Shown here one piece after another: positions 3,089 to 56,967 of a stretch of 64,000 bases of DNA. The stretch comes from a virus. The translations under genes were made by a program, and so were the position numbers. Every line of letters starts with the position of its first letter. Position 1 is the first letter of the stretch. Below the pieces are notes generated by a model. That model was not told where the DNA came from. It worked only from the letters and a program-made list of their open reading frames with translations, and ran no database searches. The stretch is from positions 2,763 through 66,762 of the IMG/VR virus record IMGVR_UViG_3300028559_000035. The stretch is one strand, 5' to 3'.

Positions 3089-3994
3089 ATGAAAAATCAA
3101 TTTATTAAAAAATCAATAATTATACATAATGGTAAATATGATTACTCTATGGTTGAGTATATAAATACCAACACTAAAGTTAGTATAATATGTTCTAAAC
3201 ATGGTGTATTTAACCAAACACCAAAAAATCATATAAACAATCACGGATGTCCTAAATGTGCTTTAGAATATAAAAGTTATAAACTTAGAGAAGATATTTT
3301 TTATTTTATTTCTAAATCAAATAAAATTCATTTAAATAAATATTCGTATGAAAAATCATTTTATAAAAATAACAAAACCAAATTAATTGTAACATGTCCA
3401 TTTCATGGTGAATTTATAATAACTCCTATACATCATTATAAAGGACACGGATGTAAAAAATGTACTAATCAACATAGAAGAAGTACCGAGGAATTTATTT
3501 TAGAATGTAATAAAATACATAATAATAAATATAATTATAGTGAATCTAAATTCACATCATTGAAAAATAGTGTTGATATTATTTGTAATAGTCATGGGAA
3601 TTTTAAACAACAGGCAGGACATCATTTAAGAGGACATGGTTGTCCAGGTTGTTCAACATCAAATGGGGAAAAATTCATAAAAAAATGGTTAGATAATTGT
3701 GGAATTAAATATATTACTCAAAGTAAATTTAATGATTGTTTAAGTTTAAAAGGTAGAAAACTAAAATTTGACTTTTTTATACCAAGTTTAAATTTATGTA
3801 TAGAGTTTGATGGGAAGCAACACTTTGAACCATTGGAATTTTTTGGTGGAGAAAAATCTTTTAATATATTGAAAGAGAACGATGATATTAAAAATATATA
3901 CTGTGATAAAAACAATATCTCATTAATTAGAATAAAATATAATGAAGATATAGAAAAAATATTAAAACAAAAAATAAATTATATTATGAACTAG
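3089..3994 (+). CDS. Free-standing homing endonuclease (CxxHG/GCxxC Zn-finger repeats + C-terminal PD-(D/E)XK/Vsr-like domain)
   Basis: Repeated YDYS..I.C..HG.F......H..G.GCxxC units; C-terminal FDFFIP...IEFDGKQHF; ends in TAG in frame with the downstream gene. Confidence 0.75.
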   Translation: MKNQFIKKSIIIHNGKYDYSMVEYINTNTKVSIICSKHGVFNQTPKNHINNHGCPKCALEYKSYKLREDIFYFISKSNKIHLNKYSYEKSFYKNNKTKLIVTCPFHGEFIITPIHHYKGHGCKKCTNQHRRSTEEFILECNKIHNNKYNYSESKFTSLKNSVDIICNSHGNFKQQAGHHLRGHGCPGCSTSNGEKFIKKWLDNCGIKYITQSKFNDCLSLKGRKLKFDFFIPSLNLCIEFDGKQHFEPLEFFGGEKSFNILKENDDIKNIYCDKNNISLIRIKYNEDIEKILKQKINYIMN

Positions 3995-7705: not shown

Positions 7706-7954
7706 TCAAGATGTGAACTTCTCTAATGCAATAGAAATATTAAATTCAGGGTCTTCAACTAGTTGTTCCGGGTTATGGTCACGAACTAATTCTTCTGGTA
7801 GTTCATATTTGACAATAGTTTGCATATTTTCTTTTTGATATATTTTTAAAGTATTTAAACAATCATTTACTATTTTAGTAATCTCATCATTAACTGGTAT
7901 AGAAGATGATTCAGAATATTTTATTATACCTTCATATGTTTTTAAATATTTCAT
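7706..7954 (-). CDS. Hypothetical protein, CTS-like N-terminus (MKYLKTYEG)
   Basis: Shared N-terminal motif. Confidence 0.5.
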   Translation of the reverse strand: MKYLKTYEGIIKYSESSSIPVNDEITKIVNDCLNTLKIYQKENMQTIVKYELPEELVRDHNPEQLVEDPEFNISIALEKFTS

Positions 7955-8445
7955 ACCTCAGAGTAATCAATTTTTAGACTAATTGTATCACTCCAAAGAT
8001 CTCCCACACTGGCAGATCCATTTGATATTTTAACTTTATAACCAATAGTTTCAATTCTTTTAATAAAATTATTATTTATTTTTTGAATAATATCATCCCA
8101 TTTTGAAGTATGTTTTATTCCACCATATTTATTTTTATATTCTATTTCTTCATTAATATTAACTAAAATACTAAAATATTTAGTAGTGATCATATCATTC
8201 AGTATCTTAGTGGCTAATTTACTTTTATTTTCATTTGGTTGATTTTCCAATTCTATCCAAGTAAAATATGAATAATGTATTCCAATTTCTTCTGGACTTG
8301 AATTGAGTTCCCACTCAAATTTATAGAAATTATTTTCTTCAGCAAATTCATTAAATATAGATTTAATTTCTTCTAAGCATTCAGTATCAAACTCATCAGG
8401 TTTTAAATTATTATTTAAATTTTCAAAGTATTTTAAATATTTCAT
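7951..8445 (-). CDS. Hypothetical protein, CTS-like N-terminus (MKYLKYFEN)
   Basis: Shared motif; TAATATATA on - strand at ~8450-8458. Confidence 0.55.
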   Translation of the reverse strand: MKYLKYFENLNNNLKPDEFDTECLEEIKSIFNEFAEENNFYKFEWELNSSPEEIGIHYSYFTWIELENQPNENKSKLATKILNDMITTKYFSILVNINEEIEYKNKYGGIKHTSKWDDIIQKINNNFIKRIETIGYKVKISNGSASVGDLWSDTISLKIDYSEV

Positions 8446-8472
8446 ATTTTATATATTAAAACTTATTGTTAA

Positions 8473-9492
8473 TTAAAGATCTTTTGAAATTATACTTTTT
8501 ATCCTATCTTCATATTTTTTGGTAAATTTAACATCATCATTTAGATACAACTGAATCAATTCTTTCTTTTTTATTTTAGAACAATCAACTCTTTTTAAGA
8601 TATATCCTTTTTCTTCACATTGAATTTTACCAAATTCATATTTCAATATATTTATCTCTGTGTTCCATAGTTTTTTTGGTTTACACTCTATGACATATTT
8701 GTTATTTATTATGAAGTCTGGAAAGTAATTTCTGCAAATACCATTTATAAAATAGGTCATTTTATTTTTTCTATTCTCACCATTTTCCCACGCTAGATTA
8801 AATCTTTCTATAATAAATATCATGTATGATAACTCTAATAAACTCCTGAAATACCAATTTTTATACCATCCAGACCACCCATTACCGGATCCAACGGGTG
8901 CCGGTTTTCCATACATAGGATTAAGTTTTCCACTATTTAAAATTGATATTTTCTTTTTAAAAATCTCATTTCTTTTATCAGCTTCAATTTTTCCATATTT
9001 AATTATCCAATACTCATAATTAGTCTTTTGATCTGGATTATGATGTCCTTTTTTAAATTCTGTTTCTTTAGAGTACCTTTTACCTTTATGTATTGATCTA
9101 TAACGGATTTTATTTTCTTCTGTGTGTCTTTTACCATAAAATGGATTTCCATCACCCTTATAAATATCTTTCTTTATCAAAGATATACACTTATAACATT
9201 TTTTATCATCATTTTCACATCTTATTCTATTTTTAACATTTTTATGAAAAACAATTTCATTACAAAAACTACATTTCCTGTAAGTTCTTTCATCTACTAT
9301 ATTATTATCTTTAATTATCTTATTAAGTGTCCTGCGGTGTAAATTTAAAAAATTAGCTATTTTATCAAGTGATGTATTTTCTAAATTTGATTTTATATAT
9401 TCTATGATGTCCATAAACAAAAAAGTTATTTTAGAATATATATTTAAATCCGAAAGTTGGAAAACCAAAAAATGTAAATAAAATGACGTCAA
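8473..9492 (-). CDS. Homing endonuclease with NUMOD3 motifs and TnsA-like PD-(D/E)XK domain
   Basis: NPFYGKRH/NPMYGK NUMOD3 motifs; FRSLLE...YFPDF...IECKP; true start probably the internal Met (MDIIEY). Confidence 0.7.
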   Translation of the reverse strand: MTSFYLHFLVFQLSDLNIYSKITFLFMDIIEYIKSNLENTSLDKIANFLNLHRRTLNKIIKDNNIVDERTYRKCSFCNEIVFHKNVKNRIRCENDDKKCYKCISLIKKDIYKGDGNPFYGKRHTEENKIRYRSIHKGKRYSKETEFKKGHHNPDQKTNYEYWIIKYGKIEADKRNEIFKKKISILNSGKLNPMYGKPAPVGSGNGWSGWYKNWYFRSLLELSYMIFIIERFNLAWENGENRKNKMTYFINGICRNYFPDFIINNKYVIECKPKKLWNTEINILKYEFGKIQCEEKGYILKRVDCSKIKKKELIQLYLNDDVKFTKKYEDRIKSIISKDL

Positions 9493-11025: not shown

Positions 11026-12839
11026 TTAAATTAAATATAATAACACGTTGTACAAGACCACAATTCTTACAAAAAGTAAAAGAATCAATATTTAAAACAA
11101 TTCTTTTTGATATAAAATGGTGGGTTGTTTTTGATACAAGAGTTATCAAAGATATTGATGCTGACTTCTTAGCTGATTTACAACTACTTGGAGGCCAATC
11201 ACTTTTCCTCAAAGGAGAAGAAGGTGATATGGCTCATTCACTATTATCAAAAGTTATTGATAAAATAGATGATGGATTTATTTATTTCTTAGATGATGAT
11301 AATATCATGCATGAAAATTTCTATGATGTATTATCAAAATGTATTAAAGAAAACCCAGAAAAAAGAGGATTTATTTTCTCACAAAAAGTTGGAGGTATTG
11401 ACTTTACTGGACTAGATATAAGAGAAGCTAAGCCAGAAAATACAAAAGTTCAACACATAGATATGGCACAATTCTTATTAAGAAGAGATTTAATTGGTGA
11501 TATTAGATTTGTTACAGGTGATTATAAAGCTGATGGATATTTTATTGAGAAAATATATAATTCAAATAAAGATAACTTTCATTTTATACCTGAAGTTCTT
11601 TGTTACTATAATTATTTAAAAAAACCTGCAAATTTTACACCAAAAATATTATACATTGGTAATGATGAACCAGTTTTAAAATCTTGGAAAGCTGCGGATT
11701 ATGAAAGTGATGATTTAAGATTATTTTATAGAAAAGATGATTCTAACTTACAAATAGATTTAAAAGAAATAAACCCAGATTCTATAATAACTTGTGCTGA
11801 TAATTGGTCAGTATTTCAAAATCTTGGAAAACAACCACTTGATATAAGATCAAGATGGATTCATACTAAAGATATTGATAATTCAACTGGAGAGAATGTT
11901 TATCAATGTGCAATGAATTATATACTAAATCAAGATAATAAAAAAGAATTTGTATCGTATTTCACACCTATTTATAATACTGGAGAAAAACTTAAACAAG
12001 CTTATACATCTTTAAAAAATCAAACAAATTATAATTGGGAATGGGTTTTAGTAAATGATTCAACAGATGGTGGATTAACTCTTAAAATAGCTGAAGAGTT
12101 GTCTAAAAATGATAATAGAATTAAGTTATATGATTTTAGAGAGAAATCAGGAGGTATTGTTGGTGAATCTAAGTATAGAGCTGCTATGATGTGTAGTGGT
12201 GAAATAATAGCAGAGTTTGATCATGACGATTATTTAATGCCAACTTGTACAGAAACATTAATTAAAGCTTCTAATAAATATCCAGAGTGTGGATTTTTTT
12301 ATACAGATTGTGTAGAGATTGATAATAACTGGAACTCATTAACATATGGAGAAGGGTTTGCATTTGGGTATGGTTCTTATAGAGAAGAAAGTGTATTTGG
12401 AAAATCTATGCAAGTTGCTAAATCATTTAATATTAATCCAAAAACAATTAGACATATTGTAGGTGTTCCAAATCATGTAAGAGCTTGGAGAAGAAATGCT
12501 TATTTTAATGCAGGTTGTCATAATAGACGACTATCAATAGCTGATGATTATGAGTTAGTTATTAGAACATTTTTAACTACTAAAATGCTAAGAATTCCAA
12601 AACTAGAGTATTTACAATTCATTCATAATGATGGTGGTAATACTCATAATATATCTAGAGCAGATATACAAAGAAGAGTTAGAACAATATCAAATTATTA
12701 TAATTTAAAAATAAAGTCTAGGTTTGAGGAATTAGGATTAAAGGATTGGGCATATGAAGATAATCCAGTTAATCCAACTTGGTGTGATAGTAAATTTGGT
12801 GAGTTTGAAAATGTAGCAAATTTAATTTGGGAAGATTAA
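11022..12839 (+). CDS. Two-domain family 2 glycosyltransferase
   Basis: Two GT-A domains: YFLDDDN and TPIYNT...VNDSTD...FDHDD...ADDYEL. Confidence 0.85.
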   Translation: MIKLNIITRCTRPQFLQKVKESIFKTILFDIKWWVVFDTRVIKDIDADFLADLQLLGGQSLFLKGEEGDMAHSLLSKVIDKIDDGFIYFLDDDNIMHENFYDVLSKCIKENPEKRGFIFSQKVGGIDFTGLDIREAKPENTKVQHIDMAQFLLRRDLIGDIRFVTGDYKADGYFIEKIYNSNKDNFHFIPEVLCYYNYLKKPANFTPKILYIGNDEPVLKSWKAADYESDDLRLFYRKDDSNLQIDLKEINPDSIITCADNWSVFQNLGKQPLDIRSRWIHTKDIDNSTGENVYQCAMNYILNQDNKKEFVSYFTPIYNTGEKLKQAYTSLKNQTNYNWEWVLVNDSTDGGLTLKIAEELSKNDNRIKLYDFREKSGGIVGESKYRAAMMCSGEIIAEFDHDDYLMPTCTETLIKASNKYPECGFFYTDCVEIDNNWNSLTYGEGFAFGYGSYREESVFGKSMQVAKSFNINPKTIRHIVGVPNHVRAWRRNAYFNAGCHNRRLSIADDYELVIRTFLTTKMLRIPKLEYLQFIHNDGGNTHNISRADIQRRVRTISNYYNLKIKSRFEELGLKDWAYEDNPVNPTWCDSKFGEFENVANLIWED

Positions 12840-14046: not shown

Positions 14047-14970
14047 GTGGATAAAAATAAAATATTTATAGATAAAGCTGAAAAGTTATATGGTAAAAAA
14101 TATGATTACTCTTTAGTAAATTATATAGGATCTTCGGATAAAATAATAATTATTTGTCCAAAACATGGAAAATTTATAAAATCGCCAAATTTACATTTAC
14201 AAGGTCAAGGATGTCCAAAATGTATTTTTGATATAAATAATAATAAAAAATATTCTAATACTGAGAATTTCATAACAAAGTCAAATAAAATACATAAAAA
14301 TAAATATACTTATTTAAAATCTGAATATAAACATAATAAAGAAAAGCTAATAATAACTTGTCAGAATCATGGTGATTTTTTACAAACTCCTCATGAACAC
14401 TTATTAGGTAGAGGATGTAAATATTGCTCTCAAGAATCAATGAGAAAAAAATTCTCAAGAACTAATAATGATTTTATAAAAATCTCAAAAAATGTTCATA
14501 ATGGATATTACGATTATTCAAAAGTAGAATACATAAATACAAATAGTAAAGTTATAATAACATGCCCAAAACACGGTGATTTTTTACAAACTCCTAAAAT
14601 ACATATAAAGGGTTCTGGATGTTCAATTTGTAATCAATCTAAAGGTGAGAATATGGTTATGAAATTTTTAAATGAAAATAATATTAAATTTGAGATACAA
14701 AAGACATTTGATAATCTTAAAGGAATATCAAAGAAGTTAAAATTTGATTTCTTTATCCCAAATAGAAATATTTGTATAGAGTTTGATGGTAGGCAACATT
14801 TTGAACCATTTTCAAATATCGAAAAATCAATATTAAAATTTACTCAAACTAAGATTAATGATGAGAGGAAAAATAAATTTTGTATTGATAATAATATTAA
14901 ATTAATTAGGATTCACTTTAAAGATTTAAATAATATCAGTATAATTCTTAAAAAAGAATTAGGTATTTAA
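14047..14970 (+). CDS. Homing endonuclease, paralog of 3089..3994
   Basis: CPKHG.F...GCxxC repeats; FDFFIP..IEFDGRQHF. Confidence 0.75.
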   Translation: MDKNKIFIDKAEKLYGKKYDYSLVNYIGSSDKIIIICPKHGKFIKSPNLHLQGQGCPKCIFDINNNKKYSNTENFITKSNKIHKNKYTYLKSEYKHNKEKLIITCQNHGDFLQTPHEHLLGRGCKYCSQESMRKKFSRTNNDFIKISKNVHNGYYDYSKVEYINTNSKVIITCPKHGDFLQTPKIHIKGSGCSICNQSKGENMVMKFLNENNIKFEIQKTFDNLKGISKKLKFDFFIPNRNICIEFDGRQHFEPFSNIEKSILKFTQTKINDERKNKFCIDNNIKLIRIHFKDLNNISIILKKELGI

Positions 14971-27553: not shown

Positions 27554-28096
27554 ATGAATAATAATAATAAAAGACTTCCTCAAATAAAGGAAAAAAAGCA
27601 TAAAACAAATAGTGAAATAAGATTTTCACAAGTTAGAGTTACTGGTGATATAGGGAAAGGAGAAATAATGTCTTCCTATGAGGCAGCTAAACTTGCAGAA
27701 TCTCTTGATAAAGATTTAATTCTTATATCAGAAAATTCAAATCCACCAGTTGTTAGAATTGATAATTATGGTAAATTTCTATATGAGATAGAAAAAAGAG
27801 AAAAGGAAAGTCGTAAAAATCAAAGAAAAACAGAATTAAAAGAAATTTCACTTTCAGTTAGTATTGCAGATCACGATTTAGGTGTTAAATCTAAAAAAGC
27901 TATAGAATTTTTAGAAGATGGTAATAAAGTTAAATTAACACTTTTACTTAGAGGTCGTCAACATAATATGTCAGAACAAGGACAAGTTGTTATGTTAAAA
28001 TTTGCAACTTTAGTTGAAGAAGTGGGTTTAGCAGAGGCTATGCCTAAATTAGAAGGATCAAAATGGAATATGATATTAAAACCTAAAAAAAAATAA
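27554..28096 (+). CDS. infC: Translation initiation factor IF-3
   Basis: N.EIR..QVRV, DLILIS....PPV.RI..YGKFLYE, KEI......I..HD...K......FL..G.KVK.....RGR. Confidence 0.92.
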   Translation: MNNNNKRLPQIKEKKHKTNSEIRFSQVRVTGDIGKGEIMSSYEAAKLAESLDKDLILISENSNPPVVRIDNYGKFLYEIEKREKESRKNQRKTELKEISLSVSIADHDLGVKSKKAIEFLEDGNKVKLTLLLRGRQHNMSEQGQVVMLKFATLVEEVGLAEAMPKLEGSKWNMILKPKKK

Positions 28097-32314: not shown

Positions 32315-32386
32315 AGTTCGTGAGTATGTTGGTATAAATATCCGGCTGTCAACCGGAAGAAGCGGGTTCAATTCCCGTACGAACTG
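32315..32386 (+). tRNA. tRNA-Asp(GTC)
   Basis: TCCGG-CTGTCAA-CCGGA; T arm GCGGG-TTCAATT-CCCGT; G discriminator. Confidence 0.8.
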
Positions 32387-32444
32387 CGAGTGAGACTGTT
32401 ACTAATACATAGAAGGCTTGGGCCTTGCATAGAATTAGATTTTT

Positions 32445-32521
32445 CGAGTAGTGACTAAGGTTATAAGCACGGGAGCCCTGGAAGCTTCAGTTAACAGGTT
32501 CGATTCCTGTCTACTCGACCA
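32445..32521 (+). tRNA. tRNA-Pro(TGG), C33 variant, encoded CCA
   Basis: C1-G72, A73, CCA; GGAGC-CCTGGAA-GCTTC. Confidence 0.7.
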
Positions 32522-32525
32522 AATA

Positions 32526-32601
32526 CGAGATATTGTGGAGTCAGGTACCCCGCCTGGTTTGGGACCAGGAGAACTCGCAGGTTCGAATCCTACTATCTCG
32601 A
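32526..32601 (+). tRNA. tRNA-Pro(TGG)
   Basis: CCTGG-TTTGGGA-CCAGG; GTTCGAATCC; C1-G72, A73. Confidence 0.85.
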
Positions 32602-32652: not shown

Positions 32653-33174
32653 ATGAATTTAGAAGAAGAAATAAAAAATTGTTATAGTGTAACAGATTTT
32701 TGTAAACTATTAAACCTATCATCGGGTGGTGGTGGATTTAATAAAGCAAAAATGATAATTCAAGATAATAATCTGGATATATCTCATTTTAATAAAGGAT
32801 ACTTTAAAAGACAAAAGAATCCTAGAATTGAAAAGATTTGTCCAGTTTGTGGTGAAAATTTTGAAACAGTAACTTGGAGTAATAAAAAAGAAAAAACTAC
32901 ATGCTCAAAATCATGTGCTAATTCTTATTTTAGAAGTGGATTAAATAATCCTAACTGGAAAGATAATTCTTACAGAACTACTTGTTTCTATTACCACAAA
33001 AAAGAATGTGTAATATGTGGGGAGGAAAAAATTGTGGAAGTACATCATATGGATGAAAATCATATGAATAATAAACCAGAAAATTTAGTACCCTTATGTC
33101 CTACACATCATCAGTATTGGCATTCAAGATATAAAATAGAAATAGAAGAAAAGATAGATAATGAAATCATATAA
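32653..33174 (+). CDS. HNH homing endonuclease inside tRNA cluster
   Basis: CVICG...EVHHMDEN..NN..ENL..LCPTHH; CPVCG...CSKSC. Confidence 0.8.
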   Translation: MNLEEEIKNCYSVTDFCKLLNLSSGGGGFNKAKMIIQDNNLDISHFNKGYFKRQKNPRIEKICPVCGENFETVTWSNKKEKTTCSKSCANSYFRSGLNNPNWKDNSYRTTCFYYHKKECVICGEEKIVEVHHMDENHMNNKPENLVPLCPTHHQYWHSRYKIEIEEKIDNEII

Positions 33175-34598: not shown

Positions 34599-34670
34599 AT
34601 ATCTTGCCTGGATTCGAACCAGGATCTTTACTTTCAGAGAGTAAAATATTAGCCGTTATACGACAAGACA
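34599..34670 (-). tRNA. tRNA-Gln(CTG)
   Basis: TTACT-CTCTGAA-AGTAA; U1-A72; GGTTCGAATCC. Confidence 0.8.
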
Positions 34671-34678
34671 TTGTATTT

Positions 34679-34707
34679 TGTTATGGAAGTAGGATTCGAA
34701 CCTACAC
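34679..34707 (-). pseudogene. tRNA 3' fragment (T arm + 3' acceptor strand)
   Basis: GTAGG-TTCGAAT-CCTAC-TTCCATA with no matching 5' half. Confidence 0.5.
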
Positions 34708-34726
34708 TGTGCATCTTCAATGTTAG

Positions 34727-34799
34727 TTGGAAAAATAGGAATCGAACCTATATCTTCTGATCCAAGGTCAGAAATAATTTGCCATTATACTATTTTCCA
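34727..34799 (-). tRNA. tRNA-Gln(TTG), C33 variant
   Basis: TCTGA-CCTTGGA-TCAGA; acceptor TGGAAAA/TTTTCCA. Confidence 0.75.
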
Positions 34800-34806
34800 A
34801 AAGTTG

Positions 34807-34877
34807 TTTTCTCGTTTGGATTCAAACCAAAGATAAGGGGGCCAAAGACCCTTGTGTTATCGCTACACTACGAGAAA
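34807..34877 (-). tRNA. tRNA-Gln(TTG), slightly degenerate
   Basis: AGGGT-CTTTGGC-CCCCT; T loop TTTGAAT; acceptor TTTCTCG/CGAGAAA. Confidence 0.7.
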
Positions 34878-34879
34878 AT

Positions 34880-34913
34880 AAAAAACCCGAACCAATTAGA
34901 TTGATTCGGGTTT
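34880..34913 (-). terminator. Intrinsic terminator (attenuator) upstream of tRNA-Gln cluster
   Basis: AAACCCGAATCAAT-CTA-ATTGGTTCGGGTTT followed by a T run on - strand. Confidence 0.8.
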
Positions 34914-34942
34914 ATATGTTTTTAGACAAAACTATACCATTA

Positions 34943-34993
34943 TCAATCTGTTCGATTAATTTGTTGTTGTTGGTATTGAGTTGTTGTTGTCAT
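34943..34993 (-). CDS. Putative attenuator leader peptide MTTTTQYQQQQINRTD
   Basis: Five CAA codons; promoter boxes upstream (TATATTTG at 35029-35036 on - strand, AATATATA); terminator downstream. Confidence 0.75.
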   Translation of the reverse strand: MTTTTQYQQQQINRTD

Positions 34994-35044
34994 ATTCTTT
35001 ATATATATTTTATTTATTCCTTGTTTTACAAATATAGTAATTTT

Positions 35045-35386
35045 TTATTTTTTACCAAAACCTTTTTTAGGTTTATATTTTTGATTTTGTTCACTTCTCA
35101 TAGAAAGTTTAGATTTAATTTCATCAATAACATCTTTTTTGGTAGATTTTTCATCAATTTTAATATTAACTCCGTTAAATTCACCAGTAACAATCGATCT
35201 TTTACCAGCAACAAATTGTGCATAAGCAGCCACTTTATTATGTTGAACATCTTTAAAATGTTTTAACAATCTATCAACATATTTTTCAATACTTTCACCA
35301 CCCATTGCTTCCAAATTATACTCTAATTTTTCAGATTTAGTTTTTATTGAAACAGGCTTTATAAATCTACTAATAAATCTACTCAT
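35045..35386 (-). CDS. Basic hypothetical protein
   Basis: 113-aa ORF; late-type box upstream. Confidence 0.5.
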   Translation of the reverse strand: MSRFISRFIKPVSIKTKSEKLEYNLEAMGGESIEKYVDRLLKHFKDVQHNKVAAYAQFVAGKRSIVTGEFNGVNIKIDEKSTKKDVIDEIKSKLSMRSEQNQKYKPKKGFGKK

Positions 35387-35432
35387 TATTATATTATTTT
35401 TTATTATATATTAAAAATATATATTTATTTTG

Positions 35433-35522
35433 TCGAGATGACAGGATTCGAACCTGCATGTTCACTTTCGTTACTCTCCTGGTCCCAAACCAGGCCGGAA
35501 GCCAATTACCGATTACATCTCG
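35433..35522 (-). tRNA. tRNA-Pro(TGG) with long variable arm
   Basis: CCTGG-TTTGGGA-CCAGG; ~20-nt variable region AGAGTAACGAAAGTGAACAT; C1-G72, A73. Confidence 0.75.
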
Positions 35523-35592
35523 TCTTGTAGATTGATCATTACCAGTCCGACACTTTCGGCGGGTTAAGATTCCGAGACAATCTACTTTATTG

Positions 35593-35665
35593 CGGTCCAT
35601 ACCGGATTCGAACCGGCACCACACACCTTGACAGGGTGGCATTGTAACCATTCAACCAATGGACC
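35593..35665 (-). tRNA. tRNA-Asp(GTC)
   Basis: Loop CTGTCAA; GCCGG-TTCGAAT-CCGGT; G73. Confidence 0.85.
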
Positions 35666-35670
35666 TTTTG

Positions 35671-35744
35671 CGGATATGAAGGGATTCGAACCCTCGATCT
35701 CCTCCGTGACAGGGAGGCATGTTAGGCCACTACACCACACATCC
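35671..35744 (-). tRNA. tRNA-Asp(GTC)
   Basis: CCTCC-CTGTCAC-GGAGG; canonical cloverleaf; G73. Confidence 0.9.
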
Positions 35745-43700: not shown

Positions 43701-45486
43701 ATGAAATATTATACTTTTGATTTAACAGATGAACAATCTATTCAATTTGAATCAGTTGTTTATTTTAATAAAGTTTATTCTATAGAATATGCAGAAGATA
43801 AAATAGGATGTAAAATTATGTTAAATTATTTCAATAATAGCGGGCTAAAATCATTTAGATATCTTTATAAAGAATTTAATGATAGTAATCATCATGAATT
43901 TGACTATATTTTTAGTTTAATAAAACCATTTATTAGAGAACATAAAATTAATAATTTAGTAAATTAATTAATCAAATACAATATGTTTTCGATTTGACAT
44001 ATGAGCAATCTGATTTTTCCAGAGTTTATTGTATAAAAGAAGAAGGAAAAAAAGAATATAAATTTATTTGTTACACATCAAATGGTGAAAAAGAAGTCTA
44101 TACAATAGAAAATAATAATGATAGTTTTAATTCTATTAAAGATTTAATAACACCACTTATTAGAGAACATAAAATTAATAATTTATTAGAGAAATGAAAT
44201 ACAAAGTGATAGAATATAATTTCGATTTAACAGATGAAAAATCCAAGGAATTAGAATCTTTGTTAATTGAAAAAGGTTGGTCTAATATTACATGTAAATT
44301 TTATTATGTAAAATACAAGCAATATCCTTTTTTTTCAAGAGATAAAAATATTTTTCCATATAAATTCATTGAATTACATCATTATACCGGTATTCATCCT
44401 AAACCGGTTGTAAACCCTGTCATTAGGCTGGATAATACTGCTGATATTTTTAATTCTATTTTAAATTTAATAACACCACTTATTAGAGAACATAAAATTA
44501 ATACTTTAATAAATGAATAGAGAAATGATAGAATATGCCTTTGATTTAACAGATAAACAATCTAAGGAATTAGAATCTATGTTAATTAAAATTGGTTTGT
44601 ATCCACCATCAACCGCAAATCCATTTAAATTTAGCTATAAATATTATTATGTGAAATACACAGAATATTCTAAAATTTTATTAAACCCATCAGAACGAGT
44701 AGAAAATCTATATAAATCTATTCAATTACATTATTATGGTGGTCTTGGAAAAACACAGATTTTTAATATTGATAATACTTGGAGCGGAATCAATAATTTT
44801 AATTCTATTTTAGAATTAATAACACCACTTATTAGAGAACATAAAATTAATACTTTAATAAATGAATAGAGAAATGATAGAATATGCTTTTGATTTGACA
44901 GATGAACAATCAAATCAGTATGAATCTATGTTATTGAGAATTTTTTTTAAAATTCCAGCGGATCCATTTAAAATTAATTCTGTAAAATATACAGAATATA
45001 TGGCTAGTGATATGATGGAGAATATTACTAGAGAATATTCTTTTTTATCACATGAAAGAATGGCATACAAATTCATTACAATTCATTATACTCAAAATGA
45101 AACAAATGAAATTTACAAAGTAAATGATAAAGATGGTCAATTTCAATCATTTTTCAATTTAATAAAACCATTTATTAGAGAACATAAAATTAATACATTA
45201 ATAGATGAATAATTTAATAATAAATATTACAAAGGAACAATCTGATAATTTAGTTAGATATGGAATTTTTTCAGTTTATGGAATTATTGAAATTTCTAAG
45301 ATAGAATATTCTGAGTTTGATTATGCTTCCTTTTTTAAAAAACAAATTACTGTACATCACACATCATATTCTGGAAAAGGAGTTTTTAATATTGATAATA
45401 TTAATAATGATAGTTTTAGTCATATTTTCAATTTAATAAAACCACTTATCAGAGAAAATAAAATTAATACATTATTAAATGAATAA
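43701..45486 (+). repeat. Tandem array of six paralogous small genes (FDLTDEQS ... LIxP(L/F)IREHKINxL)
   Basis: ORFs at 43701, 43994, 44194, 44513, 44862, 45205; near-identical ~70-bp junction DNA at ~44468-44538 and ~44816-44887. Confidence 0.8.
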
Positions 45487-45706
45487 ACTAAATATTAAAA
45501 ACAAATATTTAACTAGTTATTACTTAGACCAATATTTTGGTGGTGAGTTTAAAGAAACTGGTTTAAAATTTATCCCGGATGGTGATCCAGATGTGGGTAA
45601 GGAAAAAATTGAATTACATTATGATAGTCTTGAGGATTTGGAAGAAAAGATTTCATATATTTTGATGATTTTGACTGATAAATAAAAACTTTTACTATAT
45701 TTACAT

Positions 45707-49465: not shown

Positions 49466-50153
49466 AAAATTAATATAAATGAAAAAAATAATCGATTTAA
49501 TAAAATTAATTTTTGGATCTACGTTTAAATCCAATATTAAGAATATAAAGAATAAAAATAATAATGGAATTATTATTCAATCAGAAGGTGGTGATATCAA
49601 TATTAATAATGATAATGATAAAAAAAGAAATTTTAAAATAGACATATCAATTAATAAGAGTGAATTTATTTTTGAAAAATATACAAATAATTATAAATTA
49701 AATGGATTAGAATCAATTTCAAATATTGGTAGAATTATTCAAGAAGATTTTGATTTTGAAATAATTAAATTTATTATTTCAAATAATGGTGACACGATAA
49801 ATAACTTCAAAATAGAATTCGAAATAAATGATTCTGATTTAGAATTAAACACATTTAAAAGTATTCATAATGGGTATAAAACTGACACAATGTTATATAA
49901 TAACGGTGAAGGTGGTATTATTCCATTTGAAAAAGTTCTTGTTTGTGGAGATAAGTATATTTCAAATGGATTGGAAATAAAACCATTAAGATTGATAGAT
50001 AAAAAAATATTAATTAAATGGAGATTAATTTCAGATGGATTTTCAGATAGTGGAAATTTTGAAATATATGTGAAGTCAAATAATATCGAAATAAATTCAT
50101 ATAAAGAATATGAAAAATACTCTTATTTTCCAACTATAAATCTTAGATAATAT

Positions 50154-50348
50154 ATGGATTTTTTGTTTTTAGACTTCTATATAAAGAAGAAATATGATAT
50201 TAAACTTGAAGAATATTTTAATGTTGGTCGCCAATCAGTTTCAGATTGGAGAATATCTAATACTATTCCTGAAAAAAGACTTTTACAATTTCAAGTAAAA
50301 GAAGGATCGATAGATCCCAAAGAACTATTTAAACAATTTTACAACTAA
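50154..50348 (+). CDS. Small HTH (Cro/CI-like) DNA-binding protein
   Basis: L.EYFNV.RQSVSDWR....IP. Confidence 0.55.
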   Translation: MDFLFLDFYIKKKYDIKLEEYFNVGRQSVSDWRISNTIPEKRLLQFQVKEGSIDPKELFKQFYN

Positions 50349-50414
50349 TTTGTAAGGAAAGGGTGACAAATAAATATATACTATATGGTCTTAAAATTGT
50401 TTGTTCCATATAGT

Positions 50415-50623
50415 AATGTCAATTGTCTATTAAATGAAAGCACATCGTTTTGGTTGATAAAGCTTATATCCTAACCTTGATATAAGAAAATATCAGAATC
50501 TACAAAATTCCTGCAATGACTTTGCCGATTGTCAACAGGGCCGTGAAAGTAAAATTAAAGTAGATATCTGCCCTTACGGAGTGGGGATTCAATTACAAGG
50601 CATTGAAGAGTGAATTGACAATT
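50415..50623 (+). ncRNA. Candidate multi-stem structured ncRNA (~210 nt)
   Basis: ORF-free, GC-elevated; TGTCAATT/AATTGACA closure; CTTATATC/GATATAAG; ATCTAC/GTAGAT; CCTG/CAGG; TTCAAT/ATTGAA; AATATATA box upstream. Confidence 0.5.
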
Positions 50624-50635
50624 TAAATCTCACTC

Positions 50636-50701
50636 AGACTTCTGTGAAAAATTTCCCTTTCACGGAGTAGAATCGGTCATGAAATATATAGAGATATGAA
50701 A
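50636..50701 (+). repeat. 66-bp stem-loop + promoter + start cassette, copy 1
   Basis: AGACTTCTGTGAAAAATTTCCCTTTCACGGAGTAGAATCGGTCATGAAATATATAGAGATATGAAA. Confidence 0.9.
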
Positions 50702-50989
50702 CATATAAGAAAAATAAATGAGTTTATTAATGATGCTGAAATATATTCATTAATTGAAAAAGCAGAAAATACACCATCTTCTGATCCAGAACATATATCT
50801 AATAGAGATTCATATAAAAAAGTAGTTCAGATGGGAGAATCTGTTATTACGTATTTGGTAGATAGAAAATCATATATATGGAATATAGCATTAAAGAAAC
50901 TAACAGGTGTTGAGCCAATAGGAGAGACTAGTAGCGAAATAGTTAATTTTTGGGAAAATTGGGCAATTGAAAATGGATATAAGAAGTGA
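50696..50989 (+). CDS. Small helical (HEAT-like) protein, CTS-tagged
   Basis: Y..VV.MG..V..YL......W..AL..LTG..P.....W..W pattern. Confidence 0.5.
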   Translation: MKHIRKINEFINDAEIYSLIEKAENTPSSDPEHISNRDSYKKVVQMGESVITYLVDRKSYIWNIALKKLTGVEPIGETSSEIVNFWENWAIENGYKK

Positions 50990-51404
50990 TATAGAATCTT
51001 GGTTTCCGAATATAATTGGTAATAATTTTAAAATAATTAAAACAACTGGAGATTTTAATTGTGTTTCATATACTTTAGATATTTTTGATGGTTGGATGTG
51101 GACAAATACAGAAATTTGGCCATATAAAGAAGTTCCAAGAAATTTAGGACTAAATAGTTTTAAAATGTTATATAATCTATATGGATATGTAGAGTGTTTT
51201 AATTCTGAATATGAGATAGGTTTTGAAAAAATTGCTTTTTACTCAAAAGATAAAACACCTACACATGCTTGTAAACAATATAGGAATATATGGAGGAGTA
51301 AATTAGGACCTTCTGTTATAATAGAACATGAATTAGACTGGCTATGTGGTAATTCTGATGATGCCTATGGAGAGGTTGCTTTTATAATGAAAAGAGGTAA
51401 GTAA
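50967..51404 (+). CDS. Hypothetical protein with Cys/His motif (papain-like fold candidate)
   Basis: FNC.SY...EKIAFY......H......W.SKLG......H. Confidence 0.45.
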   Translation: MKMDIRSDIESWFPNIIGNNFKIIKTTGDFNCVSYTLDIFDGWMWTNTEIWPYKEVPRNLGLNSFKMLYNLYGYVECFNSEYEIGFEKIAFYSKDKTPTHACKQYRNIWRSKLGPSVIIEHELDWLCGNSDDAYGEVAFIMKRGK

Positions 51405-51427
51405 TTTTTGGATAATTAACTAAAATG

Positions 51428-51493
51428 AGACTTCTGTGAAAAATTTCCCTTTCACGGAGTAAAATCGGTCATGAAATATATAGAGATATGAAA
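51428..51493 (+). repeat. 66-bp cassette, copy 2 (1 mismatch)
   Basis: Same sequence as 50636..50701 except GTAAAATC. Confidence 0.9.
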
Positions 51494-52009
51494 GAATTAA
51501 AAAAATATATTGAGTTTATAAATGAAGAAATTGAATTTAAAATGTTTCCGGTTGATTATGAAGAAAGAAAAGATTTAATTTTTAATAAGGAAACTACAAT
51601 TTTTGAATTTAAAACTAAAAATGATGAATATTCTCTATACTTTTCAAATACAGATGAGAGAAATCATATTTTATCTGATGGTAAATATTTATATGATTAT
51701 TGTGATGGTAAAGATATACCAACTATATACTTTTCTCTAAAAAATAGAGGACTTTCTATTGACTTTGATGTTTTAACTGGATATGATGAAGAACTTACAG
51801 TTTTGGGTTCTGTTATTTATCTTATAAATGAGTATGACAGAAGATATAACAATCCAGTTTATACTATTGGATATGTTGATCCAAAAAAGGAAAGATTCTA
51901 CATGTATTATCTACACAATTTAAAGAGATTTAAATTATTAAAGGGAGATTCTTATTCATATGAGGGATCAGGTGCTTATTATCTTATAAAAATTAATAAT
52001 CATCTATGA
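51488..52009 (+). CDS. CTS-tagged hypothetical protein (MKELKKYIEFINE)
   Basis: Start codon supplied by repeat copy 2. Confidence 0.55.
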   Translation: MKELKKYIEFINEEIEFKMFPVDYEERKDLIFNKETTIFEFKTKNDEYSLYFSNTDERNHILSDGKYLYDYCDGKDIPTIYFSLKNRGLSIDFDVLTGYDEELTVLGSVIYLINEYDRRYNNPVYTIGYVDPKKERFYMYYLHNLKRFKLLKGDSYSYEGSGAYYLIKINNHL

Positions 52010-52755
52010 AATCTGGTGATATAGTTAAAATAATTAAAGTAGCATACCCTTTTATTAAAGAAGATGCTATTGGTAAAATATCAAAATTATTAATAAATGA
52101 GAATGGTAAATACTATTTAGAAGATTTGAAAGTCTATGCAGCAGAAGAAATATTAACAACAGACTTAGATTATCAAATAGATAAAAACAATTATTCAATT
52201 GTTATAAAGCGTAAAAATACTAAATTAGTAACTATAGATGATTCAATTAAAAATTTTATTAAAAAAGTAGAAGATGGATCAGAATTAGAATTTGAAACAT
52301 ATGTTAGACTTTATAGTAATAGATTATTGGAATTGGTTAAAAATAAAAATCATCCAAAATGGGTTGAAGCTTTATATATATTAAATGAAAACAGGTGATG
52401 AAAACAGAATATCAGGAGATAAATAAAAACAATTTTTCTTGGATTACCAAGAATCAAAAAAATTTTAAAATTTTATGAAACACATAAATGAATTTGTTAA
52501 CAATAATGATTTCTCAGAAAAAATAGAAGAGTTGATATATTTTGATGAGTCATGGAAGTTTCCAGAATATAATCTAAACACACACTTAGATATATTAGAA
52601 AATGAATATGTTGAATTAATTAATATATCTAGAAAAGTTGTTAGTGAGCTTAACAAACAAAATATTGATCCTGGCCTTTATACTAAAGATATTTTTTTTA
52701 AAATATTAAAGTCTATTTAATACTAAAAATACATTTTTGGATAATTAACTCACTC

Positions 52756-52821
52756 AGACTTCTGTGAAAAATTTCCCTTTCACGGAGTAGAATCGGTCAT
52801 GAAATATATAGAGATATGAAA
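52756..52821 (+). repeat. 66-bp cassette, copy 3
   Basis: Identical to copy 1; its ATG opens only a 24-aa ORF. Confidence 0.9.
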
Positions 52822-54047
52822 ATATCAAATTTTAGATTAAATGACTATTACTTAGATAGTAATAATAAAAAAACAAACGCTATTATTTAATAAGATGAAA
52901 TATAAAAATGGTGAAGAAATTAAAATAGGAGATTATGTAAGAGTAGTTATGTGTTGCTACCCAACACCTTCTATTGGATTACTTGGTAAAATTAGTAAAG
53001 TAGAAGATATATTTGAATCAATTAGATCAATTAGATTGTTAAGATGGGGTGTACATGTTAATATAAGATTTATTGAAAAGGTAACAGATAATTTAAATGA
53101 TATTGAAATGGAATTGAATGAGAATACAATATTTAATCCATTTTTATAAAATTTAATATAAGTTTTTCCTTATCATATAAAGAAATTCCTAAGTGAAGAT
53201 ATACTTTATATTAACTTCGTTCCCCAAATGATGAGCACACCAACCGGTATTATAATATGGTCAGATAGTGATGATCTCAGTCCAGGTAGTGTTGGAAGTG
53301 TAGAATGCCAAAAAAGTAAATTTATTAGAGTAGTAGAATTTAATGACTTCTTTAAACTTTAATATATGAGAATAAGATTGTATAAAAGTTCTGATTTTAA
53401 AAAGTCAGAAAAGAAAATGTGGAAACATATTTTAAAAAATTGGATTACATTTAATTTTAAACACTCTCCTAACTCGATATATACAATAGATAAAAAAACC
53501 ATTTAATCGGAGAAGTTGTTGAAGTATTTTGTAATTGCGGAGAATGTTTTCATAAAAATATCGATTGGTATGTTTGAAAATCATTTAGGATTAGTTTATA
53601 TTGGGGAGCCCCGTTTAGATTTTATTTATGGTAAAACCTATAAGGCAATTTATTTCACTACTGATCTCACTACTTTTTTAGATAAAGATTATTTACCAGT
53701 TGAATTTCCAAATCATCTAATACATCTAAATTTTATACATAGAGATGAATGGAGAGAAGAACGATTAGAGAAATTAGGTATATAGAATGAAATTAATAAA
53801 ACAAAATGATAATTATTTACTTATGGATGGTAAAACTATATTAGCAAATACAGATCCTAAACAAGTATCTATTTGGCCCACCGGAGAATTTTGCTTAGAT
53901 ATAGAACAAATTAATACTTTACTACCAATTGACGATGATGATGATTTTCAAATTGAAACAATTAGTGTTAAAGCAGAATATCAAGTTATAAATCTAAAAA
54001 GAAGTTTGAGAACTATTAGAAATAAAAAAATTGAAGAAATTCTAAAA

Positions 54048-55114: not shown

Positions 55115-55704
55115 ATCATTATATATTAATATTTTAAACTTAATTATATCAATAAAGTATATATTAGAAATTTAATTAATATGAAATTTGATTTAACTAA
55201 AATAGAATTTGATCAATCTGATTTGAATACCCTACACGATGTAATTTTTAACGCACTTGGTAAAGAAGACTTAACCAATGAACAAATTATTGAATACTGG
55301 AATATGTTTCCAGAAGATATAAAATTAGATGCCTTAAAATGGGGTGTAGGTGATACTCCTACTAGAGATAATATGCATGATTGGCTTGAAGAAAATTGTT
55401 TATGAAAGCAATTTGTATAAAAGATACAACATTCGACTTTGGAACTAAAAACACCTCTTTTAAGTTTGAAGTTAAAAAGAATGAAATATATGAATATTCA
55501 ACAACATTTTTTGGATATAGTATTAAAGATAAATTTAGAAGAGATTTAGAATATCCTATATTACCTAAATCTTTTGAAGATTCTTTTATAGATATATCTA
55601 AATATCGAGAGGTGAGTCTATATAAATTATTGGATAATTAGGTTAATATATTAAAAAATAATAAGTTTACATGAAAGTGATGTTATATATTTAATATATA
55701 TAAT

Positions 55705-56967
55705 ATGAAAAATAAAAAAAATTGTTTTATAGAAAAAGCTAAGTTAATATATGGTGATAAATATGACTATTCATTAGTTGAATATATTAGAAGTGATATC
55801 AAAGTTAAAATTATCTTTAATGGTGAAATATATGAACAAATACCAGCATCACATTTATCTGGTAAGTGTCCTGAAAATTTAAATAAAAGATTAACTACTG
55901 ATATTTTTATTAAAAAGGCTAAGTTAATACACGGTGATAAATATGACTATTCACTTGTTAACTATATTAACTCCTCTACAAAAGTTAAAATTATCTTTAA
56001 TAATATTATATATGAACAAAAACCAGAAGCACATTTATCTGGTAAATGTCCTGATAATTTATCAAAAAAATCCAATACTTATGAATTTATAAATAAAGCT
56101 AAATTAATACATGGAGATAAATATGACTATTCACTTGTTAATTATATTAATAATTCAACAAAAGTAAAAATAATACTAAATGGTTCCATTTATGAACAAA
56201 GACCATTAAAACATTTAGCTGGTAAGTGTCCTGAATTAGTAAAAAAATTTAATACTTATGAATTTATAAATAAAGCTAAACTTATACACGGAAACAAATA
56301 TGACTATTCACTTGTTGAGTATAAAGGAATGGAGGAAAAAATAAAAATATCTTATAAAAACAAGATATTTTATGTTTTACCATATAGCCATTTACTCGGT
56401 AAAAAAGTTGAAAAAATGATAGTTAAAAATACAAAAGATTTTATAGAAAAGGCTAAACTTATACACGGAAACAAATATGACTATTCAAAAGTTGAATATG
56501 TTAATAATTATACTAAAATTATACTTATTTTTAATAATAAAGAATATTTATACTCACCAACAGAACATTTAAATGGTGGCAATCCGAAGGGTGCTTTGAA
56601 AGGTAGTCGAGGAGAAGAAAAGATAAAAAATATTTTGATAAAATATGATATAGATTTTAAATCAGAATTTACATTCGAAAATTGTAGACATATTAATAAG
56701 TTACCATTTGACTTTTATCTAAATAAATTAAATATATTAATCGAATATGATGGCGAGCATCATTTTAAAAAAATTAAATACTATCATAAAGATAACTTTA
56801 GTAATACACTAAGAAATGATTTTATAAAGAATAATTACGCTTCCGAAAATAAAATACCTTTACTTAGAATACCATACACTGAAAATAATAATATAGAAAA
56901 TATTATTATCGATTTTATAAAAAATAATAATGTAAATTGTCAAGAAAGTCAAGTATTAATAAAATAA
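55705..56967 (+). CDS. Homing endonuclease with five tandem KAKLIHGDKYDYSLV repeats + PD-(D/E)XK/Vsr-like domain
   Basis: Internal repeats; LPFDFYL...IEYDGEHHF. Confidence 0.75.
   Translation: MKNKKNCFIEKAKLIYGDKYDYSLVEYIRSDIKVKIIFNGEIYEQIPASHLSGKCPENLNKRLTTDIFIKKAKLIHGDKYDYSLVNYINSSTKVKIIFNNIIYEQKPEAHLSGKCPDNLSKKSNTYEFINKAKLIHGDKYDYSLVNYINNSTKVKIILNGSIYEQRPLKHLAGKCPELVKKFNTYEFINKAKLIHGNKYDYSLVEYKGMEEKIKISYKNKIFYVLPYSHLLGKKVEKMIVKNTKDFIEKAKLIHGNKYDYSKVEYVNNYTKIILIFNNKEYLYSPTEHLNGGNPKGALKGSRGEEKIKNILIKYDIDFKSEFTFENCRHINKLPFDFYLNKLNILIEYDGEHHFKKIKYYHKDNFSNTLRNDFIKNNYASENKIPLLRIPYTENNNIENIIIDFIKNNNVNCQESQVLIK

Follow-up and report, generated by a model that had tools for sequence, protein, structure and literature searches.

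A candidate structured RNA with alternative tail pairings, carried behind a Cro-like regulator gene in a large phage

The locus and its genes

The window analyzed here, 64,000 nucleotides in length, covers most of a 66.7-kb IMG/VR virus record with a CheckV completeness of 20%. It has a G+C content of about 25% and contains two tRNA clusters, several HNH endonucleases, nucleotide-metabolism genes, and a phage-type helicase. The tRNA clusters, at 32315-32601 (+) and 34599-35744 (-), hold 9 tRNAs in total on opposite strands, with an HNH gene between them (32653-33174). The ORF at 55705-56967 encodes a 420-aa HNH/homing-endonuclease-like protein (phrog_559, E 1e-72) with four to five internal tandem repeats of 177-180 nt (55699-56628), and similar HNH genes are present at 3089-3994 and 14047-14970. 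Immediately before the helicase, five tandem units of ~330 nt at 44125-45564, which are 60-89% identical and each carry a small ORF (44194-45486, 93-118 aa), make up an array of small paralogous genes. Unusually for a phage, 27554-28096 encodes a 180-aa protein with a match to the phage family "translation initiation factor" (phrog_9787, E 5e-42). Loci related to the one studied here carry intrinsic terminators followed by TTAAAC-N17-TATAAT promoters; as these signals are bacterial, the source is a large phage, and the giant-virus bin label on one related contig is taken as a mislabel. Lake-water metagenome runs contain near-identical DNA, and Logan contigs from four lake-water DNA runs confirmed the sequence, with the contigs breaking at the repeats described below. 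No credible cassette deletion was found in the Logan contigs of these four runs; a joint of 50221 to 51503, seen in three of them, was considered as a deletion and rejected, its shorter side being only 21 letters. No RNA runs are listed as holding the window sequence, a result that is uninformative on expression.

The locus starts with a gene on the + strand (50154-50348) for a 64-aa Cro/Xre-like helix-turn-helix (HTH) protein. An AlphaFold model of this protein (pLDDT 91) has five helices in a lambda-repressor-like fold, and among known structures N15 Cro matches it best (Z 5.1, rmsd 1.8 over 49 residues), heading a list dominated by Cro/Xre/C-protein HTHs; for a small helical protein such a Z is modest, and the best Foldseek E-value was 2.6. 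Against Pfam, the protein scored below the cut-offs for Phage_CI_repr (14.6 bits versus 22, E 0.044) and P22_Cro (12.7 bits versus 30.2, E 0.12). The preliminary description of this DNA had called the following spacer ORF-free, and no ORF of at least 40 aa overlaps 50349-50695 on either strand. It had also singled out three strings, all of which are correctly transcribed and located: CCGTGAAAG at 50541-50549, CCCTTACGGAGT at 50571-50582, and CTTTCACGG at 50657-50665. The last of these is present in all three copies of a repeat (starting at 50636, 51428, and 52756) and is the complement of the first, a 9-mer.

The 66-nt repeat has three + strand copies, 98-100% identical over 65 nt (98% for copy 2), and occurs nowhere else in the 66.7-kb record. 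Copy 1 (50636-50700) comprises the linker, hairpin P7, and segment a' described below and reaches the ATG of a 97-aa ORF at 50696. Copy 2 (51428-51492) lies ahead of a 173-aa ORF (51488) and has one change, G to A, in a purine linker. Copy 3 (52756-52820) is followed only by a short frame from 52816 of about 24 codons, as read by eye. The flanks are mosaic: copy 3 has CTCACTC like copy 1 and ATTTTTGGATAATTAAC like copy 2. While the 65 nt stay 98-100% identical, identity in the adjoining coding sequence has fallen to 74-90%, which suggests either homogenization or constraint. No terminator-like site was found at the three copies. Each contains a sigma-70-like match (GTGAAA-18-TAGAAT/TAAAAT, 9/12), with a total of 39 such matches in the region versus 35.6 in shuffles. 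The cassette genes at 50696 and 51488 have their first ~15 codons in common, and the second gene of the first cassette (50967-51404) encodes a DUF7689 protein (Pfam E 7e-24). The remaining cassette proteins had no match in Pfam, PHROGs, or PADLOC, and PADLOC returned nothing for nine neighboring proteins.

Searches for known families, as had been proposed for this spacer, gave no Rfam match to the RNA described below in either the window or four homologue loci. Rfam 15 (4227 models) at gathering thresholds detected only 9 tRNAs in the whole window, all elsewhere. With E-values up to 10, the best match in 50100-50900 had 22.6 bits versus a threshold of 60, and with E-values up to 5 nothing was matched within the RNA at the four homologue loci. 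The C4 antisense RNA family was absent among the Rfam matches for 50100-50900 and these four loci. There was likewise no Rfam intron match indicative of a group I intron, and the HTH ORF stops normally, as it does in RNA-less paralogues. ARAGORN found 0 tRNA or tmRNA genes in 49500-53500, and blastn of the region against GenBank phages gave no match. A word search of the literature, covering the text open to such searches, returned no described phage structured RNA matching this motif; an unnamed motif could escape a search of this kind.

Homologues and compensatory changes

Homologues of the spacer were obtained through its neighbors and through its own conserved blocks. The neighboring 501-aa gene led to three related phage loci, among them L005, on a 276-kb record (G001), which aligns with window 50153-50677 at 66% over 563 columns spanning the HTH gene and the entire spacer. 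The HTH protein alignment led to a further copy, L025, which is cut by a contig end. A pattern made from the blocks common to the window, L005, and L025 detected 18 metagenome loci, of which 4 are true homologues (L033, L036, L045, and L046) and 14 are unrelated; this pattern fixed TAAAGC, CCTGCNNTGA, and TCAACAGG for four of the six rows of the final alignment and biases which homologues were recovered. Full-length RNA homologues are therefore present in five other sequences (L005, L033, L036, L045, and L046), equivalent to four further lineages. L036 is near-identical to L005, and L045 represents L025 in full, giving ~5 independent lineages with the window included. Partial copies cut by a contig end are L025 and a second copy in L036, the latter belonging to a second HTH-RNA unit in tandem with the first. 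A covariance model, R1, scored 291 bits for window 50352-50686 and 301-340 bits for the five other full copies, but these six matches hold by construction because the six are the training rows of R1. Independent matches were those to L025 (200 bits) and to the second L036 copy (86 bits), both cut at the 3' side.

Other searches returned known records or unrelated DNA. An exact IMG/VR scan for the repeat hairpin gave 0 matches and two further IMG/VR patterns gave known records only. The 17-mer GGTCTTAAAATTGTTTG was found at seven loci, a known homologue and six unrelated stretches of coding DNA, and the pattern CCGATTNTCAACAGGG(N)CC at six, a known homologue and five unrelated, GC-rich loci. 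A scan of genome contigs produced one match, in an unrelated coding region of a Bacteroidales MAG, and a weak 22-bit R1 match in G001 did not recur. R1 matched none of five records with more distant HTH homologues (G002 to G006), which are fragments.

All eight RNA copies, two of them partial, lie directly downstream of a member of the HTH family (63-67 aa). The earlier proposal that the RNA, the HTH gene, and the cassettes make up one regulatory or mobility system is thus upheld as regards the HTH link; its mobility part is not, there being no conserved adjacent recombinase or nuclease. No RNA was found beside more distant HTH members (42-59% identity) in the fragments examined. In one locus with such an RNA-less distant homologue (L007), four tandem paralogous genes of ~108 aa follow directly after the HTH gene (7734-9018, - strand). 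Ahead of the HTH gene, L005 and L036 carry a terminator and then a TTAAAC-N17-TATAAT promoter, L045 this promoter with no visible terminator, and L046 a terminator and a weaker promoter. L036 carries two promoter-HTH-RNA units in tandem. PeSLs are described as composite terminator/promoter motifs mediating indels in T4-like phages (PMC4122927). A near-identical motif of ~45 nt before the HTH genes (L036 505-580 and 1490-1560; L005 ~11290-11355), consisting of a T-run terminator hairpin and then TTAAAC-N17-TATAAT, is a true PeSL-like terminator/promoter repeat bounding the HTH-RNA units. On the other side, the gene 3' of the RNA is codirectional in the window, L005, L036, and L033 and convergent in L045 and L046 (2 of 6 readable 3' flanks). 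This gene is not conserved, and with a convergent gene in these two loci the RNA is not a conserved 5' leader.

For the analysis of structure, all column pairs were scanned for complementary runs, R1 was built from nested helices only, and the sequences were realigned to give A9, an alignment of six rows (~5 lineages) in which pairs were counted with slid-partner and shuffle controls. Standard pairs occupied 95.2-95.5% of 311-312 cells in A9, compared with 33-43% when the 3' partners were slid by 1-3 columns, and 17-19 of the 52 pairs had changed on both sides, compared with 0-4 when slid. The observed covariation score was reached by 0 of 500 shuffles, a control that related sequences can beat without structure. 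The fold has at least nine helices, including three long-range ones (s1, a, and b) that were left out of R1, so that the alignment is not fitted to them; these paired in 100%, 90%, and 91% of cells, respectively. Folding energies were modest relative to shuffles and no better on the + strand (z = -2.2) than on the - strand (z = -3.1). Folding energy says little here, and the decisive support comes from the compensatory changes in homologues. P2 and P7 contain invariant U.G pairs, which would turn into A.C mismatches if the opposite strand were read, and the RNA is therefore assigned to the + strand. These comparative data argue strongly that the spacer specifies a structured RNA, ~330 nt long and not described before, extending from just past the HTH stop codon to the end of tail segment a' (50349-50677, + strand). 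The preliminary description was right in proposing a structured noncoding RNA, for which there are now covarying homologues and a strand. Its size of ~210 nt was an underestimate, and in place of a terminal 8-bp helix under the whole there is a pseudoknotted architecture with no simple closing helix.

The 5' part of the RNA is poorly defined across homologues in hairpins P0 and P1. P0 is a tentative hairpin (50349-50370) of UUUGU and ACAAA with a purine-rich loop, AAGGAAAGGGUG, in which the motif GGGAAAG is conserved; its stems differ among homologues, and RNAfold does not pick the same hairpin in all of them. A box at 50372-50381, AAATATATAC in the window with a consensus of TTTWATAWATAC, is conserved in 7 of 7 aligned sequences and may be a promoter or an RNA junction. 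This box (AATATATA) is kept in homologues without being recurrent (9 matches in the window versus 11.4 expected). An early promoter starting from AAAATTG in the conserved 17-mer was also considered and rejected, as L045 and L025 carry AACAGGT instead. P1 (50380-50414) is specific to the window and pairs ACUAUAUGG with CCAUAUAGU, a 9-nt exact complement, around a conserved block, GGUCUUAAAAUUGUUUG; other homologues have a different short hairpin, P1a, directly 3' of the box (CUUAUGU/ACAUAAG, CUUCU/AGAGG, and CCUCU/AGAGG).

Pairing is far more regular in the remainder of the RNA, where all cells (100%) of P3, P5, P6, and the pseudoknot s1 are paired and each of these helices has two to three compensatory pairs. 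Segment s1 (GUCAAU, 50418-50423) pairs with the start of the P6 loop, s1' (AUUGAC, 50614-50619), in 30 of 30 cells from five lineages, with the variants GUCAAA/UUUGAC, GCCAAU/AUUGGU, and ACCAAU/AUUGGU and changes on both sides in three of six pairs. The 5' strand of P2, (C)GUUUUG with the extension GUUGA (50446-50457), was matched by column-pair complementarity to 50589-50602 (UCAAU, a bulge UA, and CAAGGC(A)); 86% of its cells are paired, one pair is U.G in six of six rows, and L045 has UUAUU/AAUGG. P2 is the weakest long-range helix, with an extension that was recovered inconsistently. It replaced a long-range helix, GUCUU/AAGGC, which had been drawn from two sequences and was broken by the added ones. 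Between the strands of P2 lie P3 (CUUAUAU/AUAUAAG, 50463-50486, three of six pairs changed on both sides), P4, and P5. In P4 (50510-50539), the stems CCUG..UGA and UCA.CAGG flank a 12-nt loop and are invariant; this invariance is not evidence for pairing because the search pattern demanded it in four rows, and the stem has no covariation. The P4 loop carries segment a (CCGAUU, 50525-50530), which covaries with a' in the tail. P5 (50571-50586) has the stem CCCU/GGGG, with the variants CCCC/GGGG, CCAG/CUGG, and CCCG/CGGG and changes on both sides in two of four pairs, and the loop UACGGAGU. P6 (GAGUGA/UCACUC, 50608-50635) has changes on both sides in two of six pairs. The invariant unpaired bases in the junction are CUAAAG, GAAAAYAUC, and UCAACAGG.

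Pairing of the tail and its copies

The 3' end of the RNA can be paired in two ways. Locally, it may form P7 (50642-50665), with the 5' arm CUGUGAAA, a loop, and the 3' arm b', (C)UUUCACGG; five of nine pairs change on both sides, and the second pair is U.G in six of six rows, the 5' arm having U where b has C, a one-base difference in each row. Alternatively, b' may pair with segment b, the 9-mer of the preliminary description (50541-50549), which lies just after P4. Although the sequence varies, b is the exact complement of b' over 8-11 nt in all five lineages: CCGUGAAAG and CUUUCACGG in the window, ACCUUAAAGA and UCUUUAAGGU in L005, ACCGUAAAAG and CUUUUACGGU in L033, ACCGUAAG and CUUACGGU in L045, and UACCGUAAAGC and GCUUUACGGUA in L046. 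In L005, L033, and L046 no other exact complement is as long as this pairing, which is tied for longest in the window (9 nt) and L045 (8 nt). The match enters the P7 loop in L005, L033, and L046, and hence b is more than a copy of the P7 5' arm. The covariation between the 9-mer and the repeats that had been suggested as a check is present, in that the 9-mer covaries with both arms of the hairpin, 5' and 3', in five of five lineages. When folds of the segment from b to b' were forced, the b:b' state was better than P7 by 3.0-5.6 kcal/mol in all five lineages, in calculations that ignore pseudoknots and tertiary contacts. Between b' and a' (AAUCGGU, 50671-50677), the partner of the P4 loop, lies a linker of 4-6 nt made up of purines only. 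Variants of a and a' are CCGAUU/AAUCGG, CACCGAU/AUCGGUG, AGACUU/AAGUCU, and GUCGAUU/AAUCGAC, with a duplex energy of -9.1 to -10.4 kcal/mol in all five lineages.

An earlier remark that CCCTTACGGAGT resembles the repeat arm extends to the homologues, as the P5 loop mimics the tail (ACGGAGUAG) in every lineage when the sequences are read. The P5 loop copies the end of b' and the linker, as ACGGAGU in the window, GGUAGA in L005 and L045, and GGUAAA in L046. It may serve as a decoy or as a second docking site or option, or be a relic of duplication. Taken together, segment b, the 5' arm, the P5 loop, and the tail have the appearance of an ancient duplication within the RNA, which could explain part of their resemblance.

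These data alter the status of the repeat. G001 is the only related record of sufficient size for such a search, and it has a single copy of the tail module, located at the RNA end; copy 1 in the window is thus the RNA's own 3' end, and not an element adjacent to the RNA as first described. Copies 2 and 3 are best read as lineage-specific duplications of the module together with the ribosome-binding region and start codon, placed before two gene groups. It had been proposed that the RNA switches or targets the repeat hairpins in cis or trans. A cis switch between P7 and the long-range helix is the simplest reading, while trans targeting of the other two repeats is possible in this phage only.

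The reading that we prefer, and to which we would give about an even chance, is that the locus encodes a new family of structured phage RNAs with a built-in two-state tail-docking switch, made together with an early Cro-like regulator. The RNA would most likely be on the same early transcript as the upstream HTH gene. Its core would comprise P3, P4, and P5, closed by the long-range P2, and P6, whose loop pairs back to s1. In one state, the tail would fold into the local P7, with the 5' arm pairing to b' through the conserved U.G; in the other, it would dock on the core, with b' on b just after P4 and a' on the P4 loop, to give an extended H-type pseudoknot. The P7 and docked states are mutually exclusive, which is what would make this a built-in switch. 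P7 is likely to be the first, cotranscriptional state and the docked state the more stable one. The comparisons establish conservation, the helices, the three-way covariation, the strand, and the tie to the HTH gene, whereas we infer the formation of both states, their order of folding, the cotranscription, and any output of the switch.

Competing readings and known phage RNAs

The segments c4 a'/b' and P4 CI seqA/B/C are complementary to sites further along their transcription units. A comparable layout is present here, with a:a' and b:b' complementary to sites before a downstream gene, though this is a likeness of layout and not of family membership. The c4 RNA has a role in regulating ant (PMC8201110). 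Both c4 (P1/P7) and P4 CI share with this RNA that they are phage RNAs with short segments directed at downstream sites, that they have more than one target site, and that they adjoin small regulator genes. They are about 80 nt and unrelated in sequence, whereas this RNA is about 330 nt and has three long-range helices; the "target" here moreover belongs to the conserved fold of the RNA itself, and neither an immunity function nor an antirepressor is apparent. A trans-acting antisense regulator of the c4 or CI type, in which a and b bind b'-linker-a' in the cassette mRNA leaders, at the RNA's own downstream gene and at the two additional copies, and set translation or stability, would account for three modules with identical b' and a', each ~20 nt before a start codon, for a module that is 98-100% identical while the following coding sequence is at 74-90%, and for two short complementary segments that recall the c4 layout. 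We nevertheless consider it unlikely. The module of the 276-kb record is single-copy and within the RNA, and L045 and L046 have no codirectional gene 3' of the RNA, so that trans targets cannot be the conserved function; in addition, a' ends ~19 nt before the ATG, leaving the presumed ribosome-binding site outside both a' and b'. It is also possible, but quite unlikely, that the core (P2 to P6, with a and b exposed) is a trans-acting guide or ribozyme that docks on RNAs bearing the portable b'-purine linker-a' module, as presented by P7.

Between these two estimates we would place the reading of the repeats as PeSL-like recombination or promoter cassettes by which small genes are shuffled, which is rather unlikely; under it, the 9-mer and the P5 loop would be leftovers from a duplication of the hairpin module within the RNA, and only P7 would form. 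Both cases involve short repeated stem-loops between small variable gene groups, with mosaic flanks, in a large phage of lytic type. The sigma-70-like match in each module, the true terminator-plus-promoter repeats around HTH-RNA units in relatives, and the resemblance of b to the 5' arm and of the P5 loop to the tail all fit this account. A PeSL, however, is a terminator plus an early promoter, whereas the window hairpin derives from the 3' end of a structured RNA, has a promoter match at chance (shuffle) frequency, and, lacking a U-tract, is not a terminator. Furthermore, the homologue module is single-copy, b complements b' better and over a greater length than the 5' arm does, reaching the P7 loop, and b has remained an exact complement in five lineages despite changes in its sequence and divergence of the surrounding spacer. 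A complex junction with invariant unpaired bases, mutually exclusive 3' helices, and, in the window, a start codon 19 nt past a' could instead suggest a cis-regulatory, riboswitch-like leader controlling the downstream gene in response to a ligand or protein. This we regard as very unlikely, given that the 3' gene is unconserved and convergent at 2 of 6 loci, that the conserved neighbor is upstream, and that neither state sequesters a terminator or ribosome-binding site. Finally, the fold z-score, being no better on the + than on the - strand, is what might be expected of a DNA-level site (an origin, a packaging site, or a protein-binding array) or of a decayed gene, with no RNA made. Such an origin for the conservation is extremely improbable, as the invariant U.G, whose counterpart on the other strand is A.C, would be meaningless in duplex DNA, nine helices show compensatory changes, and no ORF of at least 40 aa overlaps the window spacer.

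The tail-docking reading has its nearest structural parallels in SAM-II and preQ1-II, H-type pseudoknot switches in which a tail further downstream pairs with the loop of a hairpin, the linker is rich in purines and placed to run along the stem, and a local hairpin competes. Loop-tail pairing, a purine-rich linker, and a competing local hairpin all recur in this RNA; unlike in those switches, the tail is ~140 nt from the hairpin and would be brought near by a second helix, b:b', and there is no conserved regulated gene. Large, multiply pseudoknotted RNAs with covariation support are rare, and each new one has begun a line of work. GOLLD and ROOL are presented in a recent preprint as large, ornate, conserved phage RNAs without a known biochemical role (bioRxiv 10.1101/2024.12.08.627333). 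The present RNA is similarly ornate, conserved, and phage-carried but is smaller, has no Rfam match to these families, and is adjacent to an HTH gene rather than to tRNAs. It is linked to an early Cro-like regulator, in jumbo phages of fresh and marine waters about which little is known, and is compact enough for probing and structure solution, and its two-state element could be tested by point mutations. Should the trans reading prove true, the phage would have wired several cassettes to a single RNA, amounting to modular, programmable RNA-RNA control or processing in a jumbo phage. The presence of the same tail module on three messages is a natural experiment in this respect, and trans action of the core is for that reason directly testable with reporters.
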